Shown: piece after piece, positions 2,627 through 49,648 of the stretch
Position numbering within the stretch: the first letter of the stretch is position 1
Layout: every line of letters starts with the position of its first letter
Source: Patescibacteria group bacterium
Lineage (GTDB): Bacteria > Patescibacteriota > UBA1384 > 2-12-FULL-50-11
Length of the DNA stretch: 64,000 nucleotides
NCBI GenBank assembly: GCA_038058635.1
Contig: JBBUAP010000001.1
Coordinates: 384,771-448,770 of the forward strand
Reading direction: 5' to 3'
The notes under the pieces: generated by a model
Seen by the model: only the letters and a program-made list of their open reading frames with translations
Told to the model about the DNA's origin: nothing
Database searches by the model: none
Program-made: the position numbers and the translations under genes

Positions 2627-3383
2627 CAGCGGTTAGCAAGTTTTCGAATAAAAAACTGACTGTTAGGGGGCCGATCGCCCCTTTGGTGGGGGTAATCTTT
2701 TTGACTAGGGGTTCGATAGTTTTAACATCAACATCCAGGCCAGAGCCATCAACCACAACCATTTCCTGATGGACCATTTCTGGAGCAACTAAACCACGAA
2801 CGCCGGTGGCGGAGATTAGTAGATCGTGCTGACGGATATTTTCGGCCTGGGACTTGGCCTGCTTGGCGATAACAGTCAAAGGCCAATTGTTGGCCGCGAA
2901 AACCTTTGCCAGCGGTCCGCCGACCAACTTGCCCATACCCAAAACTACGGTTTTCAAGTCTTTTATCGCAATCTGGTGATATGACAATAAAGCCATAATG
3001 CTACTGGGGGTTGGCGAGTCGTACGGCGAGTTGCCGCTTAAATTGTCGATGTCTTTGATGGGGTTCACTTTCTGGATTAATGCCTCGGTATCTAATGATT
3101 TTGGTAGGGGCAGTTGAAGAACAATGCCGTCAATGTCTTGGCGTCGGTTGAGGCCATCGAGCATCGATTCTAATTGTTGTTGGCTGGCGGTGGGGAAATG
3201 GTGCAAGAAAAAATGACAATCCAACTTTTTGGCCATCGCTTGTTTGGCCCGGATATAGGTGGCGGTCTGCTTGTCTTCCCCCACCCAAACTAAAGCTAAG
3301 CCAGGGGAAGTTGATAGTTTTTGACGACGAGCGACTAGCTCGACAAGCCGCTGACTAAGAAGCGCCTTGGCTATCAGTTGCAT
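2610..3383 (-). CDS. folD: bifunctional methylenetetrahydrofolate dehydrogenase/cyclohydrolase
   Basis: 257 aa with DGIVLQLPLP and the GMGKLVGGPLA NAD(P)-binding region typical of FolD. Confidence 0.85.
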   Translation of the reverse strand: MQLIAKALLSQRLVELVARRQKLSTSPGLALVWVGEDKQTATYIRAKQAMAKKLDCHFFLHHFPTASQQQLESMLDGLNRRQDIDGIVLQLPLPKSLDTEALIQKVNPIKDIDNLSGNSPYDSPTPSSIMALLSYHQIAIKDLKTVVLGMGKLVGGPLAKVFAANNWPLTVIAKQAKSQAENIRQHDLLISATGVRGLVAPEMVHQEMVVVDGSGLDVDVKTIEPLVKKITPTKGAIGPLTVSFLFENLLTAAIRKS

Positions 3384-3389
3384 TACGGG

Positions 3390-4046
3390 TTAGGGGGCGA
3401 CGGGCGTCGGCGTCGCTTTGGCCGCGTCGATGAGTTTCTGCCAAGTTTCGGCAGTTTGGACACCGGTGAACTTAACCTTATTGAGATAGAAGGTCGGCGT
3501 ACTATCGACTTTCAAGGCCAAGCCGTAATCACGGTCTGTTTCGACCGTCTTCTTTGTTTCTGAACTGGCGTAATCTTTTTCAAATTGGTCGATGTTCAAA
3601 TCAAGTTCTTTGGCGTAGTTGATATAGGTATTGAGCGGGTCGTCGAGGTCCTCCCAAGATTTTTGGTTAGCGTAAAGCAAATCGAGCATCGGCCAGAATT
3701 TACTCTGCTTCCCGGCCGCTTCAGCCGCCAGCGACCCATTCATCCCGTTTTGGTGATTGGGTAAGGGAAAGTGACGGAAAATAATTTGAACCGAATCGCC
3801 GTTATTGGCTTGAGCTTTCTCGAAATCAACGGCGGCCATCGCGCAAGCCGGGCACTGGAAATCACCAAATTCGACTATTTTAACGACTGCGCTATCCGGA
3901 CCGAGTTTATGGCCGACGGTTTCGTCGAGCTGATCGGCAGTGACAGTTGTTTTGGTTGAACTGTCACTGGAAAAAATGACGATGCCGCCAATTACTAAGA
4001 CGGCCGCCGCCACCACACCCAAGAAAAATTTTGAATCACCTGACAT
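3390..4046 (-). CDS. DsbA-family thiol:disulfide oxidoreductase, membrane-anchored
   Basis: N-terminal TM helix, thioredoxin-fold CPAC active site (FGDFQCPACAM). Confidence 0.7.
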   Translation of the reverse strand: MSGDSKFFLGVVAAAVLVIGGIVIFSSDSSTKTTVTADQLDETVGHKLGPDSAVVKIVEFGDFQCPACAMAAVDFEKAQANNGDSVQIIFRHFPLPNHQNGMNGSLAAEAAGKQSKFWPMLDLLYANQKSWEDLDDPLNTYINYAKELDLNIDQFEKDYASSETKKTVETDRDYGLALKVDSTPTFYLNKVKFTGVQTAETWQKLIDAAKATPTPVAP

Positions 4047-11643: not shown

Positions 11644-12385
11644 AAAAGAGCCCTCCTTTCGGAGGGCCTTTTCGGAAGTCTGTAAGCCGGGTTCTGTTTT
11701 AAACGATCATCTGTCTAAGCGTTGAGACCAATATTCAATTGCGAGACCGCAATGGAGCTCGTTGTTCCTTTTGGGAACTTCAAACTTAGATTAAATATCG
11801 GCCCACTCAACTTGCACCACGCTGGGTTTAGCTACTCGCCTTATTACTAAGGACGATTGTGCGCTCTTACCGCACTCTTTTCACCTTTGCCTGTTCCGAT
11901 TCAGTTAGGAAGGGGTGTCACACCTGAGCGCGACACCCATGGTCTATGGACTGCGGGATACTCCGCAGTCGAAGTGGCCGTACTCAGTACGGGCCACTAT
12001 AGAGAGACGATGATTGGTCTTCGACCAGAAGCAGATTCGCCCAATACACGGAGTTTGGACATTTCGATTTTCGCTTCCGACTCTTCTCCTAGTGTCCAAC
12101 CCCTTTCAACGTCCCTGGTAATGATGGTGACGATTTCGGATGCCTGGATTTCGTCGGTCGCTTCAAATCCAAACCGTGCGACGACTCCTCCACGCAGCCT
12201 CATGAAAAGCTCATAATTCATACCCATCTTCTTTCCTCCTAACTGAACCGGACATTGGCTGTTTTGTTTCTGTGCCACTTTCCCTTAGATTGCTCTAGCC
12301 TGCCGTTAGCAGGAGCGCGTCTCTATGGTGCCCGGACTTTCCTCACATGTTAATGCGCGATCGTTTCGACTTCGGGGAAAATATA
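11644..12385 (-). ncRNA. rnpB: RNase P RNA (bacterial type A-like) with a large insertion in P9
   Basis: On the minus strand: the P4 5' strand GAGGAAAGUCCGGGCACCAUAG (plus 12313-12334), a P5-P8 region paralleling E. coli M1 RNA (GGGAAAGUGGCACAGAAACAAAACAGCC), the P10-P12 signature AGGUGAAAAGAGUGCGGUAAGAGCGCACA (plus 11848-11876), the P4 3' strand ACAGAACCCGGCUUACA (plus 11677-11693), then hairpin GGCCCUCCGAAAGGAGGGCUC + UUUUCG terminator. Length is about 740 nt against 350-450 nt typical, because of the insertion described in findings. Confidence 0.65.
11997..12227 (-). CDS. hypothetical 76-aa protein encoded inside the rnpB P9 insertion
   Basis: AGGAGG (plus 12235-12240) lies 7 nt upstream of the ATG at 12227. 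The ORF reads MGMNYELFMRLRGGVVARFGFEATDEIQASEIVTIITRDVERGWTLGEESEAKIEMSKLRVLGESASGRRPIIVSL, is co-oriented with rnpB, and is followed by three strong hairpins. No family recognised. Confidence 0.3.
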   Translation of the reverse strand: MGMNYELFMRLRGGVVARFGFEATDEIQASEIVTIITRDVERGWTLGEESEAKIEMSKLRVLGESASGRRPIIVSL

Positions 12386-19334: not shown

Positions 19335-19913
19335 TTATTTTAAGTCGTATTTAGATAACAGTTTTTTGCATGTACCGTGTATTCCTAAGTGGAAAAATCC
19401 GACAGCTACCGGTTTAAAGACAATCGGAAACCCTAAAGGTATTTCTGTGATACCAATTCCTAATGTTATATGTGGATGATAATTTGAATACGCACTATTT
19501 TCTTCAAAATTATTAACCCAATCAACAAGAGAGCTTGATTCAGACATTTCAAAAAAGTTTTCTGATGTTACTGTGCCAGCATTGTGTTTAGTAATTAAAT
19601 CAAAGACAGTATTGTGTAAATTTTGAAGATATTCACTTACCTCAAGGCTAAAATGACTATATTTACTAGAGCCTAAAGAAGTTAAGGTAATTTCGGGCAT
19701 CTCAAAGCTTTCTAATAATGATCCCAATTCTTTTTTAAAGTCATTAACATTTTCCAAAAGTAAACTTCCCATACCTAAAGTGATATGTGGATTATAGCCA
19801 TCTTCAAAAGACACAAAATCTTTTTTATCAGACCCCTTATTACATTCCTTGCAAATATTATTTATCTTTTCTGGGAGTAATAACACAACATCTATAGCTA
19901 TTTTTTCTTGCAT
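19335..19913 (-). CDS. 2H phosphoesterase superfamily protein (LigT/ThpR-like 2',3'-cyclic phosphodiesterase / 2'-5' RNA ligase)
   Basis: Two H-x-T-x motifs (HITLGMG and HITLGIG) at the spacing of the 2H fold. The gene is conspicuously AT-rich compared with flanking DNA. Confidence 0.6.
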   Translation of the reverse strand: MQEKIAIDVVLLLPEKINNICKECNKGSDKKDFVSFEDGYNPHITLGMGSLLLENVNDFKKELGSLLESFEMPEITLTSLGSSKYSHFSLEVSEYLQNLHNTVFDLITKHNAGTVTSENFFEMSESSSLVDWVNNFEENSAYSNYHPHITLGIGITEIPLGFPIVFKPVAVGFFHLGIHGTCKKLLSKYDLK

Positions 19914-40145: not shown

Positions 40146-40490
40146 CTACTGGCTGTTCTGAAGGTACTCCGGCCAGCACTCGTCGATGAACCAGGCAAAA
40201 CCCTTTCGATGGGTTAATTTCTGGGCTCCGCCCACTTCGCCCAGTCCATCGAAGATGCGGAAAACCACGAAGCCCCTATAGACGACGAGTTCGCTCACGA
40301 GCGGACACATGTCAAGCTTGGGATCGAACTTCCCCAGAAGCCAAGCAGTGCCAATGGCTCGATTATTCGGCTTGTCGGGCGAATTACTGTCGCCAGTAAT
40401 CGTGAGCGTCAGCCGCCCCCTTTCGGGAGCGCCATAGACGTCTCGCATCGCATGCAGTGCCTCAAGAACCAATTCACCTTTATTTTTCAC
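40146..40490 (-). CDS. hypothetical protein
   Basis: 114-aa ORF with no recognised motifs. A structured bidirectional terminator region lies at 40085-40140. Confidence 0.4.
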   Translation of the reverse strand: MKNKGELVLEALHAMRDVYGAPERGRLTLTITGDSNSPDKPNNRAIGTAWLLGKFDPKLDMCPLVSELVVYRGFVVFRIFDGLGEVGGAQKLTHRKGFAWFIDECWPEYLQNSQ

Positions 40491-44350: not shown

Positions 44351-44491
44351 TCACTCATTTCTGCCCCAGGGATCTTCGGGTCGTTCGCCCCAAACCAATC
44401 GAGTGAGCCAACTCACCACCCAAACGGCGACAGTTACGAGCAGCGTCAGTCCGACCCAGAATAGATGAGAGGCCTTTTCACTAACATTCAT
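44351..44491 (-). CDS. hypothetical 46-aa single-TM micro-protein
   Basis: GGGAGGA SD 4 nt upstream of the ATG at 44491. ORF reads MNVSEKASHLFWVGLTLLVTVAVWVVSWLTRLVWGERPEDPWGRNE. Below the ORF-track size cutoff. Translated by hand. Confidence 0.3.
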   Translation of the reverse strand: MNVSEKASHLFWVGLTLLVTVAVWVVSWLTRLVWGERPEDPWGRNE

Positions 44492-45278: not shown

Positions 45279-45947
45279 TCAGACTGGACTGGGAATGGGA
45301 CACTCGGCTCGGCCAACCTGCATATAGTTGGCTGCATGTACCTTAAGCGAGTCGGTGCAGCTTTGAGCAGCGTTAATAAGGTCGTTATTCAGAACGGGGA
45401 TAACCTCGTTAGCCCAAAGACAAGGCTTACCGTTGGCGAATTTGTCGCAGATTGCATCGGTGACAATCTTTCTGGCTCCATCTTCACCAAGGGACACCAA
45501 GACCAACAGGTCGAGCTTGCGGTCATTGATGATAGCGGATGTGGCTTGACGAGTTTGATACTTCAGCCAGATTTTGTCGCTATCAGTCATGCCGCTACTA
45601 TTGTAGACAAAAGCTTCCCGAACGAGGAGCCTGAATCCGTCGAGAAGTATCAGCTCGTTCGGTTGGTCATCAAAGCTCTCAATCACTTCGAATACTGCCT
45701 CCACCCCACTCAGGAAACAAATAATTCGAGCAATCAGTTCGCCTCTACCATTTAACCGGCTGCCGAAAAAATCGTCGTAGGTTTGGCGGACAGAATCGCT
45801 GACCTTCCTTCGCTGTTGAGACGCTGTCAATCGGACAATCTCGATCGAGCCGAAACTGTCGTTTGCAAGTTTCCCCTGAATTGTTTGAATCAGGGGTAAG
45901 CTGCTGGGAAACCTTACACTACCGTTGAAAAAGAGCGCCGCTGTCAT
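45279..45947 (-). CDS. hypothetical protein
   Basis: 222-aa ORF with its own intrinsic terminator. Preferred over the antisense 190-aa plus-strand ORF. Confidence 0.4.
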   Translation of the reverse strand: MTAALFFNGSVRFPSSLPLIQTIQGKLANDSFGSIEIVRLTASQQRRKVSDSVRQTYDDFFGSRLNGRGELIARIICFLSGVEAVFEVIESFDDQPNELILLDGFRLLVREAFVYNSSGMTDSDKIWLKYQTRQATSAIINDRKLDLLVLVSLGEDGARKIVTDAICDKFANGKPCLWANEVIPVLNNDLINAAQSCTDSLKVHAANYMQVGRAECPIPSPV

Positions 45948-46023: not shown

Positions 46024-46857
46024 ATGGATATCGGCGCACATGTTTCCACCGCTGGCGGGTTAAAGAATGCTATCGATAGCGGGATTAAGATCGGCGCCGA
46101 AGCGTTGCAGATTTTTCCGTCCGCGCCGTTGCAGTGGAAAATTCGGGGTTGGGACGAAGAACAGTGCGCGTGGTTTAAGGCCGAATGGCCAAAAACTTTT
46201 AAGCAAGTTATCTTTCATGGCATATATCTAACGAATTTGGCTGGAACCAGTCCAGAGAATGTTATTAAAACCAAAACTGCCCTAATTGAAACCTTAAATT
46301 TGGCGGCGAAAATTGGTGTTGTCGGCACAATCTTTCATCCTGGCTCGTACACCAACGGTGAGCTCGGCAACCAAGATCAGATCAAAACTGTAATCGCCGA
46401 GATACTGGCGGCGACACCTCCAGAATCGAAACTCATTTACGAAAACTCGGCCGGTTCGACGATCGGCGGTAGACTGGAGGACTTGGCGTGGCTCGTTAAC
46501 GCCTCTTCGGACAAATCGCGGGTTGGGGTTTGTTTGGATACTTGTCACGCCTTTGCCGCTGGTTACGACATTAAGACCAAAAATGGCTACGAAGCATATG
46601 TCAAAGAGGTTGACCGCTTAATTGGCCTCGACAAAGTTTTCTGCTGGCATTTCAATGACTCCAAGTTTGAGTTAGGCGCCAAGCGCGATCGGCACGAGAA
46701 CATCGGCCAAGGATTTCTCGGTGCTGAACCGTTTGGAAATATTCTGAACGACTCGCGCTGGGCGAGTTTGGCTTGCTACCTAGAAGTACCTGGTTTTGAC
46801 GATAAGGGCCCTGACCAGAAAAATATCGAAATACTCAAGAATCTGCGTCAGAGCTAG
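46024..46857 (+). CDS. nfo: endonuclease IV (AP endonuclease family 2)
   Basis: TIM-barrel AP endonuclease motifs (GAHVS, HGIYLTNLA, HPGSY, CLDTCHAFAAGYD). Confidence 0.85.
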   Translation: MDIGAHVSTAGGLKNAIDSGIKIGAEALQIFPSAPLQWKIRGWDEEQCAWFKAEWPKTFKQVIFHGIYLTNLAGTSPENVIKTKTALIETLNLAAKIGVVGTIFHPGSYTNGELGNQDQIKTVIAEILAATPPESKLIYENSAGSTIGGRLEDLAWLVNASSDKSRVGVCLDTCHAFAAGYDIKTKNGYEAYVKEVDRLIGLDKVFCWHFNDSKFELGAKRDRHENIGQGFLGAEPFGNILNDSRWASLACYLEVPGFDDKGPDQKNIEILKNLRQS

Positions 46858-47237
46858 TTTGCCTCGAGGTATTTTTTGATTGCGCCGAGATAATAAATAT
46901 CCCAGCCCTCTTTCAAATCCTTTTCTTCACTAGAAGGATGGCCGGTTTGGGTTAATTTAATTTCTGTGTGATCATCGGTGGACGTCACGTCAAAAGTGAC
47001 GATTGACGGTTTTGGCCAATCGCCGTATTGCCACTCCTGGACAAGTTTATTGGGCTTCTCGACGGCAGTGTTGACTCCGCTAATGTCGCCGTTCCAAAGC
47101 TCAAATTCAAAACCAACCTCGGCGCTCATTCTGGCTGGAGCATTGCTCCACTTGGCGATTATCTCTGGGTCAACCAATGCCTGCCAGACTTTCTCGATCG
47201 GCGAAGCGATTAAAAAAGTTTCTTTAATTTCAGCCAT
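46854..47237 (-). CDS. SRPBCC / AHSA1-like domain protein
   Basis: 127 aa. KVWQALVDPEIIAKW and a beta-grip pattern typical of Aha1/SRPBCC. Confidence 0.6.
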   Translation of the reverse strand: MAEIKETFLIASPIEKVWQALVDPEIIAKWSNAPARMSAEVGFEFELWNGDISGVNTAVEKPNKLVQEWQYGDWPKPSIVTFDVTSTDDHTEIKLTQTGHPSSEEKDLKEGWDIYYLGAIKKYLEAN

Positions 47238-47465
47238 TCAATATATTTTAACTCAATGCCTAGTTTTACCAAGTAATTAGTAAGGGTAAAATATACGACC
47301 CCACCTTGTTAGGGGCGGGGTCGGATGCCGCTCTCCTGGAGCGGCGTAATGTATTACTGGTGTGCGGCTTGTTGTTGTCGCACAAACCAGAAGTGACATT
47401 CAATCGACTTGAGTCAATAGTGGGCATGTTGCCCAGTTATCGCTCACTGCCCGGGGCGCCGGGGT

Positions 47466-47630
47466 TCAGACCGCGTTGGTCGAGTGTCCGGTGTCCGCGC
47501 CAATGTCGATGTCGTTCTTGAAGGTGCCGGCCGACGTGTGGCCGTTGGTCGTGTTGATGGCGCCGTTGGACGCAATTGGTTCGATCTGGCTAAACAAGTT
47601 GCGCACTCTGGGCGATCCTCGAATCATCAT
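47466..47630 (-). CDS. hypothetical 54-aa Gly/Thr/Asn-rich peptide
   Basis: GGGAGGA SD 6 nt upstream of ATGATG at 47630. ORF reads MMIRGSPRVRNLFSQIEPIASNGAINTTNGHTSAGTFKNDIDIGADTGHSTNAV. Intrinsic terminator hairpins downstream at 47285-47345. Hand-translated because it is below the ORF cutoff. Confidence 0.3.
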   Translation of the reverse strand: MMIRGSPRVRNLFSQIEPIASNGAINTTNGHTSAGTFKNDIDIGADTGHSTNAV

Positions 47631-47807
47631 GTGATTTCCTCCCTACCCCCCTAAGCAATCTGAAGCATCTTCAGCGATCACCCGGTTTTTGGGTAGTGCA
47701 CCAGCGAACAAAAGCAGTGAGCTTCCGCTTGCGGGTTGTGAAAATATTACCACCTTTGCGTCGGATTGTCAACAGTTTTTGGCAGAATTTTTGTGTATAC
47801 TAATACT

Positions 47808-47963
47808 ATGAATTCACTTCAACTTATGGGCGCACTAGCGATTGCTTTTGGGATTTTGGTGATAATCTTTCCGCAACTGGTCGGCATTTTGGTCGGCATT
47901 TTCTTTATTATCGTCGGCATCAACATCCTGGCTTTCGGCAACAAGTTCACCCGACTTCGCTAA
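47808..47963 (+). CDS. DUF3096-like two-TM micro-membrane protein
   Basis: MNSLQLMGALAIAFGILVIIFPQLVGILVGIFFIIVGINILAFGNKFTRLR. Diverges from the small-peptide gene. Confidence 0.4.
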   Translation: MNSLQLMGALAIAFGILVIIFPQLVGILVGIFFIIVGINILAFGNKFTRLR

Positions 47964-47983
47964 AGTAGTAATTACCCCTTCAA

Positions 47984-49648
47984 CTAGGAGTCAACAGTCT
48001 TTAGAGATTTTTTCCGCTGACGCTGGCGATGAAATCCGATGACAAAGCGATGCGTTTCGTCGCGGATACGAGCAAGTAGAAGAACTCCCTTATGTCCCCG
48101 CGTCGCCAGAACGGGTTTTTTCTTTCCCGGCAAAAATATCCGATCTGGCTTCTTGGCAAGAGCGATAAATCGCAGCATCTGGCCACTTGCTTCTGGCTCC
48201 TTGCTAGTCTGCCAGTTGCTAGTAGCTAGTTGCTCCGCCGCCTTAAGGGCGGCGGCAAGCTGTTCCGGTCCACCATCAACCACAAACAAATCCGGTAGCG
48301 GTCGGGAAGTGTCCGCGAAACGCCGGGCGGTCACTTCAGCGATCATCGCAAAGTCATCTTGCCCCTCAACCGTTTTGATTTTATAGCGCCGATACTCGTT
48401 TTTATCCGGTATACCATTAATAAAACAAACGGTGGCCCCAACCGGTTCGCTCGCACCGAGGTTAGATATATCAACCGCTTCGATCCGTTGCGGCAATTTA
48501 CCTAACCCTAATAATTCTTTGATGGCGATAACTCCAAGCATACTCGAATCTTGGTTTACTAAGCTGGATTCAAGTTTAGCTCCAGCGTTCTTTTTGGCTA
48601 ACGCCACAAAGTCTACCTTGTCGCCGCGCGTGGCAACTCGTAGCTCGATCGAATGACCGGACATCGTTTCCAACCACCCTTCAATCAGTTTCTGGTCATC
48701 GATAGCAGTCTCAAGAATAATTAAACTCGGGTGTACTGGGAAGTTAGCATAAAGTGTTAAGAAAAATTGGCGAATAACTTCGCTTTCCGCTTGATCAATC
48801 GGTGAGTCAAAGACAAACTGCTTCTGCCCGCTCATTACCCCCTGACGAACCATGAGTAATGTTACGACAGATCGATTATTAGTTTCAGCGGTGGCGATGA
48901 CATCGAAATCTTCCTGGGCTTGCCCAACGATGTGCTGTTTAGTCGTTACTTGTCTTATTGCCCTTAACTGATCGCGCAGTTTCGCCGCCAGCTCGTAGTT
49001 CTTTGCCTCCGAGGCCTGATTCATTCGCAAACTCAAGTCCTTGGAAAGCGAGTTGCGTTTGCCAAGCAAGAATTCAACAGATTTTGTTACCTTGACAGCA
49101 TATGCTTCAGCAGATATTTCACCGGCCAACGGGCATGAGTTATTTTCAAGCTGGCAGTTTAAGCAGGGCCGAGCATTACCAGAGGGCAAGGCTCGATTAC
49201 TGATATGAACGCCGTAAAGCCGGCGCAAGAACTCGCAAGTTAGTCGTGCCGACCAGGCCGATAGATAGGGACCAAAGTATTTTGCCCCGTCGCGAGCGCG
49301 TTTGCGGACAACCTGAAAGCAGGGGAACGGCTCGTTGACGGTTAGTTTAATAAATGGGTAGGCCTTGTCGTCAGTTAGTTTGATATTGTACTTCGGCAAA
49401 TATTCGCCGATTAAGCGGGATTCCAAAATTAGGGCCTCGAGTTCGTTGTTGACGACAATTATTTCAATGTCATCAATTAACCCGATCATCACGCTCACCC
49501 ACGGTCGATCTAAGTGTTTGTTTGTAAAATAGCTTCCAACCCGATTTCTCAAGTTTTTGGCCTTGCCAACATAGAGCACGGCGCCAGAGTCGTCCTTGAA
49601 AAGATACACACCAGGCTGGGTTGGCAGATTGTTGGTCAACTTTTTCAT
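47984..49648 (-). CDS. uvrC: excinuclease ABC subunit C
   Basis: N-terminal GIY-YIG (GVYLFKD..LYVGKAKNLRNRV), UvrBC interaction region, and C-terminal RNase H-like/HhH region. Confidence 0.9.
   Translation of the reverse strand: MKKLTNNLPTQPGVYLFKDDSGAVLYVGKAKNLRNRVGSYFTNKHLDRPWVSVMIGLIDDIEIIVVNNELEALILESRLIGEYLPKYNIKLTDDKAYPFIKLTVNEPFPCFQVVRKRARDGAKYFGPYLSAWSARLTCEFLRRLYGVHISNRALPSGNARPCLNCQLENNSCPLAGEISAEAYAVKVTKSVEFLLGKRNSLSKDLSLRMNQASEAKNYELAAKLRDQLRAIRQVTTKQHIVGQAQEDFDVIATAETNNRSVVTLLMVRQGVMSGQKQFVFDSPIDQAESEVIRQFFLTLYANFPVHPSLIILETAIDDQKLIEGWLETMSGHSIELRVATRGDKVDFVALAKKNAGAKLESSLVNQDSSMLGVIAIKELLGLGKLPQRIEAVDISNLGASEPVGATVCFINGIPDKNEYRRYKIKTVEGQDDFAMIAEVTARRFADTSRPLPDLFVVDGGPEQLAAALKAAEQLATSNWQTSKEPEASGQMLRFIALAKKPDRIFLPGKKKPVLATRGHKGVLLLARIRDETHRFVIGFHRQRQRKKSLKTVDS

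Follow-up and report, generated by a model that had tools for sequence, protein, structure and literature searches.

The locus described here is the interval between a gene for an SRPBCC protein and uvrC in a 64,000-nucleotide (nt) stretch of contig JBBUAP010000001.1 of a Patescibacteria group bacterium; we refer to the whole stretch as the window. The interval contains two small genes in divergent orientation (Table 1). The plus strand carries a gene for a 51-amino-acid (aa) two-helix membrane protein, hereafter the membrane gene. The minus strand carries a 54-codon open reading frame (ORF), hereafter ORF54, which lies between a promoter-like site and an intrinsic terminator, and we refer to this whole element as the peptide unit. 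An earlier reading of the DNA (the original prediction) had already placed two separate micro-genes here, about 180 bp apart, and had warned that they are easily missed; the two ATG codons are indeed 177 nt apart, and one Logan contig call omits the membrane gene. We conclude that a solid, conserved gene for a micro-membrane protein stands here beside what is probably a young orphan micro-gene. Each of the two is probably a real gene, the membrane gene firmly so, but they do not belong together in function.

Table 1. Features of the SRPBCC-uvrC interval, in positions of the window.
Feature	Position	Strand	Basis
SRPBCC gene	46854..47237	-	Pfam AHSA1 match, E = 1e-23
SRPBCC promoter-like site, TTGGTA-16-TAAAAT	47245..47272	-	-10 ends 7 nt before the SRPBCC ATG
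Intrinsic terminator: 10-bp GC-rich stem (8 G-C pairs), 8-nt loop, then UAUAUUUUAC	47286..47323	-	terminator scan
Structured 3' untranslated region (UTR), four hairpins: 47464..47450, 47446..47410, 47390..47358, 47345..47327	47327..47464	-	minimum free energy and centroid folds
ORF54, 54 codons, MMIRGSPRVRNLFSQIEPIASNGAINTTNGHTSAGTFKNDIDIGADTGHSTNAV	47466..47630	-	called by both the NCBI and the Logan gene callers
Shine-Dalgarno (SD) sequence GGGAGGA, 6 nt before the ATG	47637..47643	-	sequence; aligned GGAGGA in the closest relative (L003)
5' leader, about 100 nt; a stem-loop at its 5' end has an invariant 3' arm, GCUUUUGUUC	47644..47737	-	start inferred from the promoter
Promoter-like site TTGACA, 17-nt spacer, TG, TAATAT	47744..47772	-	consensus scan, 10/12 positions, extended -10
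-10-like hexamer TATACT, 6 nt before the membrane-gene ATG	47796..47801	+	TAnnnT conservation, no SD
Membrane gene, 51-aa two-helix protein, MNSLQLMGALAIAFGILVIIFPQLVGILVGIFFIIVGINILAFGNKFTRLR	47808..47963	+	homology, synteny, dN/dS, AlphaFold
uvrC	47984..49648	-	

A conserved gene for a two-helix membrane protein

Within a groundwater clade of Berkelbacteria the membrane gene belongs to the conserved core. We found it in 12 distinct lineages, in each case between nfo (with or without genes for DUF1761 and SRPBCC proteins) and uvrC. Its product has seven homologues with 71-96% identity, and their alignment opens at a conserved MN start; the ORF finder lists a 65-aa version with a TTG start, the extra part of which is not conserved. 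The ratio of non-synonymous to synonymous substitutions (dN/dS, from Nei-Gojobori counts) is 0.02-0.15 in five lineage comparisons. The original prediction had proposed a kept reading frame and mostly synonymous variation in related genomes as the mark of coding sequence, and the membrane gene displays both; it is under strong purifying selection. Its annotation is inconsistent, since gene callers give it 51, 55, 59, 65 or 89 aa.

AlphaFold, supplied with the eight-sequence family alignment, predicts the structure with a pLDDT of 91.7 and places helices at residues 3-20 and 22-50, with a break at a conserved F21-P22. The protein thus has the architecture of a two-transmembrane (TM) helical hairpin, two hydrophobic helices joined by a short turn, which defines an architecture and not a family. 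The two-helix protein of the original prediction is therefore confirmed, with a length of 51 rather than 50 aa, while its label 'DUF3096-like' is a description of architecture and not a family assignment. The match to DUF3096 (PF11295) stays below threshold (16.2 bits, E = 0.0086, threshold 23.3), and only four of the eight family members match at E < 0.1. DUF5362 (PF17319) does slightly better and is also below threshold (17.8 bits, E = 0.0031, threshold 25); all eight members match it, every one of them sub-threshold (best E = 3e-4). DUF308 (HdeD-like repeat, PF03729) reaches 14.6 bits against a threshold of 25, and a match to YtpI is likewise below the gathering threshold. The membrane protein resembles the two-TM proteins of DUF5362, DUF3096 and DUF308 in its length of about 50 aa, its two hydrophobic helices, its very short turn (the conserved F-P) and its weak profile matches. 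It differs from them in that the clade forms a tight family of its own, with the high identities given above and a fixed position between nfo and uvrC. We know of no function for any member of DUF5362, DUF3096 or DUF308.

A hexamer of the form TAnnnT ends 6-8 nt before the ATG of the membrane gene in all 12 lineages, compared with a background frequency of 6%, and an SD sequence placed to function is absent before this ATG in 12 of 12. A -10 box ending about 6-8 nt before the start codon, without an SD, is the arrangement that characterizes leaderless genes. Because the box ends 6 nt before the ATG in the window and no SD is present, the mRNA of the membrane gene is probably leaderless, with its start placed by the position of the -10 box. 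This reading agrees with the rest of the window, where 38 of the 46 long ORFs have no SD. Several of the long ORFs, themselves likely genes, are nevertheless preceded by GGAGGA, and leaderless initiation may be common in this genome beside a minority of strong GGAGGA-led genes. The SRPBCC gene also has a -10-like hexamer (47245..47250) shortly before its ATG, the distance being 6-7 nt for the two genes.

Anatomy, relatives and coding potential of the peptide unit

The minus strand of the interval appears to encode a discrete transcription unit. A near-consensus promoter of the extended -10 type lies about 105 nt upstream of ORF54, and we propose that it would drive a monocistronic transcript of about 440 nt (448 nt as predicted), comprising a leader of about 100 nt, the strong SD, the ORF and about 170 nt of 3' UTR, in which the terminator is the fifth and final hairpin. 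ORF54 and its GGGAGGA are present as originally predicted. The peptide is hydrophilic and, as stated earlier, N/G/T-rich (18 of 54 residues) and devoid of Cys; it has neither a signal sequence nor a membrane segment, and the ORF contains no tandem repeats. AlphaFold models it with low confidence (pLDDT 59) and mostly as coil. The product would most likely be a soluble, unstructured peptide, with NLFSQIEPIASNGAINTTNGHTSAGTFK and NDIDIGADTGHSTNAV as its tryptic peptides. In the NCBI metagenome-assembled genome, whose 495,617-nt contig carries locus tag AAB669_02300, it is annotated as a hypothetical protein of 'Patescibacteria group bacterium'.

The terminator has the arms and loop CGACCCCGCC-CCUAACAA-GGUGGGGUCG (47323..47296), and with its GC-rich hairpin and U-run it has the form of a rho-independent terminator. 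The original prediction of a tandem hairpin terminator was right about the hairpins and the U-run; however, the loop that it gave as UCCAG reads CAGGA on the RNA strand (GCCGCUC-CAGGA-GAGCGGC, 47345..47327), and the 3' UTR contains five hairpins rather than two. One of the hairpins of the 3' UTR coincides with inverted repeat I1, and a GC-rich one directly follows the stop codon of ORF54. The terminal hairpin occurs once in the 64 kb, and it was rejected as a dispersed repeat or miniature inverted-repeat transposable element. The consensus fold of the leader is weak (-13.9 kcal/mol, with one compensatory pair, from only two sequences), and a riboswitch was rejected on this ground. ARAGORN detects no tRNA or tmRNA in the interval, and a search of Rfam yields nothing at gathering thresholds and chance-level matches only in 46500..48500 (E = 0.36-8, with E up to 10 allowed); tmRNA, RNase P, 6S RNA and riboswitches were accordingly discarded as known RNA families for this interval.

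For all 12 sampled lineages with the membrane gene we inspected the corresponding intergenic spot. The only one with a positional homologue of the peptide unit is the closest relative, L003, whose UvrC is 90% identical. The promoter occupies the same site there (4007..3979), with about 87% identity over the promoter block, and the leader is about 70% identical. GGAGGA stands at the aligned column and is followed by a TTG start, where the window has ATG. The ORF of L003 has 40 codons (3731..3853, MNIHGPPVKGMKFGNKSIFTTKTVSNGGTNTACAAAGNKS), was called independently on another contig as P0010, and encodes the tryptic fragments FGNK/SIFTTK/TVSNGGTNTACAAAGNK. The unit of L003 has its own terminator, a hairpin after the stop codon with a GAAA loop, and no gene following it; it converges on the end of nfo. 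Over the unit, two window-type copies (L001 and L002) show no difference from the window, and L003-type contigs differ from one another at 3 sites in 1403 nt, none of which is inside the ORF. A scan of metagenomes for further copies with the DNA pattern GCTTTTGTTCNNTGGTGCACTA returned the L003 contig alone, and a scan of a genome collection returned none.

The other ten lineages have a spacer of 35-184 nt or, in L009, two tRNA genes at this spot, and no such ORF. L021 is the next closest lineage (UvrC 88%), and in it the last three 3' UTR hairpins of the window directly adjoin the promoter of the membrane gene; in the more distant L022 the terminal hairpin is kept. The hairpin retained in L021 and L022 shows one compensatory change from A-U to G-C and one inserted C-G pair. 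Since it is kept in two lineages without the ORF, it is older than the peptide unit, which has its place between the older hairpin and the promoter of the membrane gene. In these two lineages (L021 2893..2990, L022 about 2885..2950) the hairpin lies between two divergent genes, with a poor U-run and no obvious transcript to terminate. The site is also one of turnover: SRPBCC and DUF1761 genes have been gained and lost and L021 carries a deletion, and the tRNA genes at the spot in L009 mark it as a hot spot of small-gene gain and loss. These are tRNA-Tyr(GTA) and tRNA-Ser(GGA), upstream of the membrane gene at 3797..3995, and they are found in L023 as well.

The order of promoter, short ORF, hairpins, terminator and SRPBCC gene on a single strand is that of an attenuator, with ORF54 as a leader peptide and the region as a long regulatory 5' leader of the SRPBCC gene. 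The comparison of lineages makes this highly improbable. The unit of L003 has no gene behind it to regulate, and the SRPBCC gene occurs without the unit in L006, L017, L022 and L024. In the window the SRPBCC gene has a promoter-like site of its own downstream of the terminator, with the -10 close to its ATG, so that the peptide unit is not simply its leader; the terminator would rather insulate it. Additionally, 54 codons are long for a leader peptide, and an SRPBCC protein of the AHSA1 family is not a biosynthetic operon. The suggestion that the region is only a 5' leader, which had been set against the original prediction from the outset, is disfavoured.

In order to weigh whether ORF54 is coding, we compared the two distinct ORF sequences. 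GC content by codon position 1/2/3 is 0.44/0.50/0.81 in ORF54 and 0.38/0.53/0.80 in the ORF of L003. The bias at third positions (GC3) has a permutation P of 1e-4 and 2e-4, respectively, and this periodicity is absent from the leader and the 3' UTR. A 21-nt block, TCS AAC GGC GSC AYC AAC ACG, is in frame in both ORFs, shifted by 12 nt and thus by a whole number of codons (P = 0.03). Promoter, SD, ATG, terminator and ORF-confined periodicity, taken together, are not due to chance.

Several observations weigh against a coding role. The GC3 of 0.8 lies outside the range of the genes of the window, which average 0.53 and contain no 54-codon piece above 0.72. Over the 19 codons that can be aligned with L003 there are 15.5 non-synonymous and 1.5 synonymous differences, the opposite of purifying selection. 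ORF54 bears out only half of the conservation that the original prediction had asked for: frame, SD and start are kept in one relative and the indel is a multiple of three, but the changes are mostly non-synonymous and ten lineages have no ORF. A 54-codon open frame in DNA of 59% GC is unremarkable (P estimated at about 0.15). The antisense strand is also open in one frame, as would be expected as a by-product of high GC3 on the sense strand. A codon model gives log-odds of 0.164 for sense and 0.16 for antisense; as the two strands score alike, codon-usage log-odds are useless as a coding test here. Both transcripts fold better than shuffled sequences (z = -3.98 in the window and -4.20 in L003), as a small RNA would. 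The peptide has no detectable homologue anywhere searched. A word-indexed search of 5.8 billion proteins and an exhaustive phmmer search of 1.84 billion representatives both recovered the peptide itself and nothing else related; one extra match (P0009) is to a NACHT repeat protein and was dismissed as a chance match. The peptide has no match in Pfam, NCBIfam, PADLOC, PHROGs or viral contigs. The L003 peptide likewise finds only itself in the protein search and matches neither PADLOC nor PHROGs, and a BLASTP comparison of the two falls short of significance (E = 0.18). The paralogous copies for which the original prediction had proposed a search are absent from the 64 kb window and from the fetched loci. 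Finally, only two distinct sequences of the unit exist among those found, and population copies show no variation within the ORF.

A non-coding structured small RNA (sRNA) of about 440 nt, or a dual-function RNA that acts through its RNA part, with an ORF that is either incidental or useful only for ribosome loading, accounts for part of this, and we regard it as rather unlikely though worth keeping in mind. Promoter and terminator bound a discrete transcript with the fold scores given above, conservation is highest in the promoter and 5' leader rather than in the ORF, the peptide is an unconstrained orphan, and three of the 3' hairpins occur in L021 without the ORF. On the other hand, a pure RNA gene would not predict that the GC3 periodicity is confined, in each of the two lineages, to the ORF (P about 1e-4). 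The SD and the start codon occupy matching alignment columns in both. Moreover, Rfam gives no match even at E up to 10, the leader has a weak consensus fold, and the transcript has no complementarity to neighbouring genes in the 64 kb. SgrS/SgrT, RNAIII/hld and SR1/SR1P are dual-function sRNAs that encode a small peptide. The peptide unit is like them a discrete structured transcript of a few hundred nt with its own promoter and terminator and a short SD-led ORF, but no base-pairing target and no conserved RNA family was found for it, and its RNA is not conserved outside the leader.

The unusual composition could also mean that high-GC coding DNA was captured from a foreign source, once or in two separate events at a hot spot of insertion, and that the body of the ORF is its decaying and now functionless relic, which we consider unlikely. 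No gene in the window has a GC3 resembling the 0.8-1.0 seen here. Between the window and L003 the body of the ORF and the 3' UTR cannot be aligned, while the flanking genes keep 64-77% identity at third positions of conserved residues, and the turnover of SRPBCC, DUF1761 and tRNA genes and the L021 deletion at the site are in keeping with such captures. However, promoter, SD, start, open frame and terminator are intact in both lineages, unselected GC3 should decay toward 0.5 and yet is 0.8 in both, and the 1.84 billion representatives contain no donor-like homologue.

The codons of ORF54 are dominated by AAC, ACC, GGC, GAC, CAC and ATC, the differences between lineages fall mostly at codon positions 1 and 2, and the GC-rich hairpin directly after the stop codon has a GAAA loop in L003. 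An AAC/NNC-rich body of this kind recalls the variable region or the template repeat of a diversity-generating retroelement (DGR), and DGRs are common in genomes of the candidate phyla radiation (CPR). Such an element would pair a reverse transcriptase gene and an adjacent template repeat with a variable region that differs from it only at adenines. The open frames of the 64 kb contain no YxDD or [ILVM]GxxxSQ reverse-transcriptase motif, and a scan of the same sequence with adenines masked retrieves only the ORF54 sequence itself and no repeat partner. A third of the lineage differences involve no adenine, indels are present, and 54 aa are too short for the known C-type-lectin or Ig-like target folds of DGRs. 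We therefore consider a DGR at this locus extremely improbable.

We return to ORF54 as a translated, very young, weakly constrained and lineage-specific small gene, a proposition that we judge to be evenly balanced from the signals around it and that explains the locus best. The gene would be young, as the unit is present only in the lineage of the window and one sister lineage; its amino-acid sequence would be essentially unconstrained while codons ending in G or C are retained. As our best guess, the product is a highly expressed, composition-constrained disordered peptide, or the ORF is one whose translation matters more than its product. A bolder version appears doubtful: that this is a strongly expressed, fast-diversifying small gene, free or under positive selection in its amino-acid sequence but retaining G/C-ending codons and a disordered, N/G/T-rich composition, or that it is a remote DGR target of unprecedented small size. 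In the first case its product might be a composition-constrained peptide for protection or surface interaction, or one used in competition, with different versions in sister populations of an episymbiotic groundwater bacterium that occur together. If either were true, the locus would represent a new kind of small-gene evolution in CPR bacteria. The retention of codon-end bias without retention of peptide sequence would pose a puzzle for the origin of small genes, drawn here from two sequences only.

Independence of the two genes

The original prediction compared the two genes with toxin/immunity or precursor-peptide/transport-accessory arrangements. Such a functional pair could be a toxin with its immunity protein, a bacteriocin or a ribosomally synthesized and post-translationally modified peptide (RiPP) precursor with an accessory protein for transport or immunity, or a type I toxin whose antitoxin RNA is transcribed divergently. 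The resemblance is one of form: the genes are divergent neighbours with adjacent -35 regions, a small hydrophobic protein lies beside a small hydrophilic peptide, the partly conserved first seven residues (M-x-I-x-G-x-P) and variable tail of the two peptides are reminiscent of leader and core, and the membrane protein matches '2TM effector' models of PADLOC very weakly (E = 0.02-0.04). The distribution of the genes speaks against it. In 10 of the 12 lineages the membrane gene is present, in fixed synteny and under strong purifying selection, without the peptide unit. ORF54 is not a partner of the membrane protein, the two genes do not form a functional pair, and we consider each form of pairing very unlikely.

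Gene content and sequence agree with this conclusion. The maturation enzyme, exporter or immunity gene that would neighbour the precursor in a RiPP or class II bacteriocin locus was not found in the window: among Pfam-assignable genes within about 8-10 kb there is no modifying enzyme, no C39-peptidase/ABC exporter, no immunity gene and no other partner. The peptide lacks Cys, matches no leader family of Pfam or NCBIfam, and, by eye, does not have the spacing of a clean double-glycine leader; neither peptide matches PADLOC or PHROGs. A type I antitoxin RNA is complementary to the mRNA of its toxin, but a blastn search of the 456-nt minus-strand unit against the window with 7-nt words detected no complementarity in 47808..47990, and the mRNA of the membrane gene probably has no 5' UTR to be targeted. 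The loci tisB/istR-1 and dinQ/agrB are type I toxin-antitoxin loci with a divergent antitoxin RNA. Like them, the present locus has a small hydrophobic protein beside a divergent RNA, near uvrA, uvrB, uvrC and nfo. Unlike them, it lacks complementarity and a LexA-type box, its membrane gene is a syntenic core gene, and the RNA is absent in 10 lineages. We also considered control by LexA or the SOS response and rejected it, as no LexA-type box (GAAC-N4-GTTC) occurs within the window and the palindrome of the leader (TAGTGCACCA) is not repeated beyond chance.

The peptide unit therefore lacks the testable defining features of RiPP and bacteriocin loci, of type I toxin-antitoxin systems, of DGRs and of every Rfam family, and no novel toxin, RiPP or defence system comes to light at this locus. 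In form the unit resembles dual-function sRNAs and lineage-specific small ORFs. Ribosome profiling has detected lineage-specific small proteins, both SD-led and leaderless, as in the mycobacterial sets (PMC4633059). The present locus shares with these sets very short ORFs with good initiation signals, inconsistent annotation, and the presence of SD-led and leaderless genes in one genome. It differs in that the genes here are read from sequence alone, and in that ORF54 has a codon bias foreign to its genome and unconstrained amino acids.

The two genes would be best described as independent transcription units that share a compact back-to-back promoter region, with a core gene for a two-helix hairpin, most likely translated without a leader, on one strand and the SD-led unit on the other. 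The promoter of the membrane gene must lie in a region directly adjoining the -35 element (47772..47767) of the peptide promoter. Where both genes are present, in two lineages, each promoter could therefore interfere with the other or stimulate it. If our reading is right, the locus combines a conserved, probably leaderless micro-membrane gene that pipelines call inconsistently with a very young SD-led orphan gene at a hot spot of insertion and deletion, and leaderless and SD-led initiation coexist within 180 bp.

Genomic setting and other features of the window

The closest genomes carry the label Candidatus Berkelbacteria, and Hainich groundwater metagenomes supplied most contigs, the wells there being the source of ERR3858116, ERR3858135 and ERZ1292626-38. 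Pfam-assignable genes between 39 and 58 kb of the window encode FBA, GAPDH, an MBL hydrolase, a PRTase, a class V aminotransferase, SOD, nfo, SRPBCC, uvrC, uvrA, uvrB and sugar transferases; those within about 8-10 kb of the locus are housekeeping or repair genes. Two ORFs in the 39-58 kb span have no Pfam match (40146..40490 and 45279..45947, both on the minus strand). Some relatives have an extra ORF of 344-659 aa without a Pfam domain between the membrane gene and uvrC, which is not found in the window (L003 4248..6182, L006 2277..4256 and L017 4198..5232, all on the minus strand).

Another SD-led micro-gene lies in the interval between the aminotransferase and SOD genes (44351..44491, minus strand). 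Its ATG follows GGGAGGA at a distance of 4 nt, and a promoter-like site (TTGACT...TATATT) is present upstream. It encodes a peptide of 46 aa with a single TM segment (MNVSEKASHLFWVGLTLLVTVAVWVVSWLTRLVWGERPEDPWGRNE), is called in one Logan contig, and is unrelated to ORF54. A 193-aa ORF at 19335..19913 (minus strand) has a GC3 of only 0.23, compared with the mean of 0.53 for genes of the window, and is an outlier in the direction opposite to ORF54.

The window also encodes a class A RNase P RNA (11671..12373, minus strand) that extends over 703 nt for a model of 367 positions. An insertion of about 330 nt lies within its P12-region hairpin (about 11907..12240), and a second one of about 34 nt near model position 248. 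The larger insertion begins with uuaGGAGGAaagaagAUG, which comprises the SD and the start of a 76-aa ORF (11997..12227, minus strand) that has no Pfam match.

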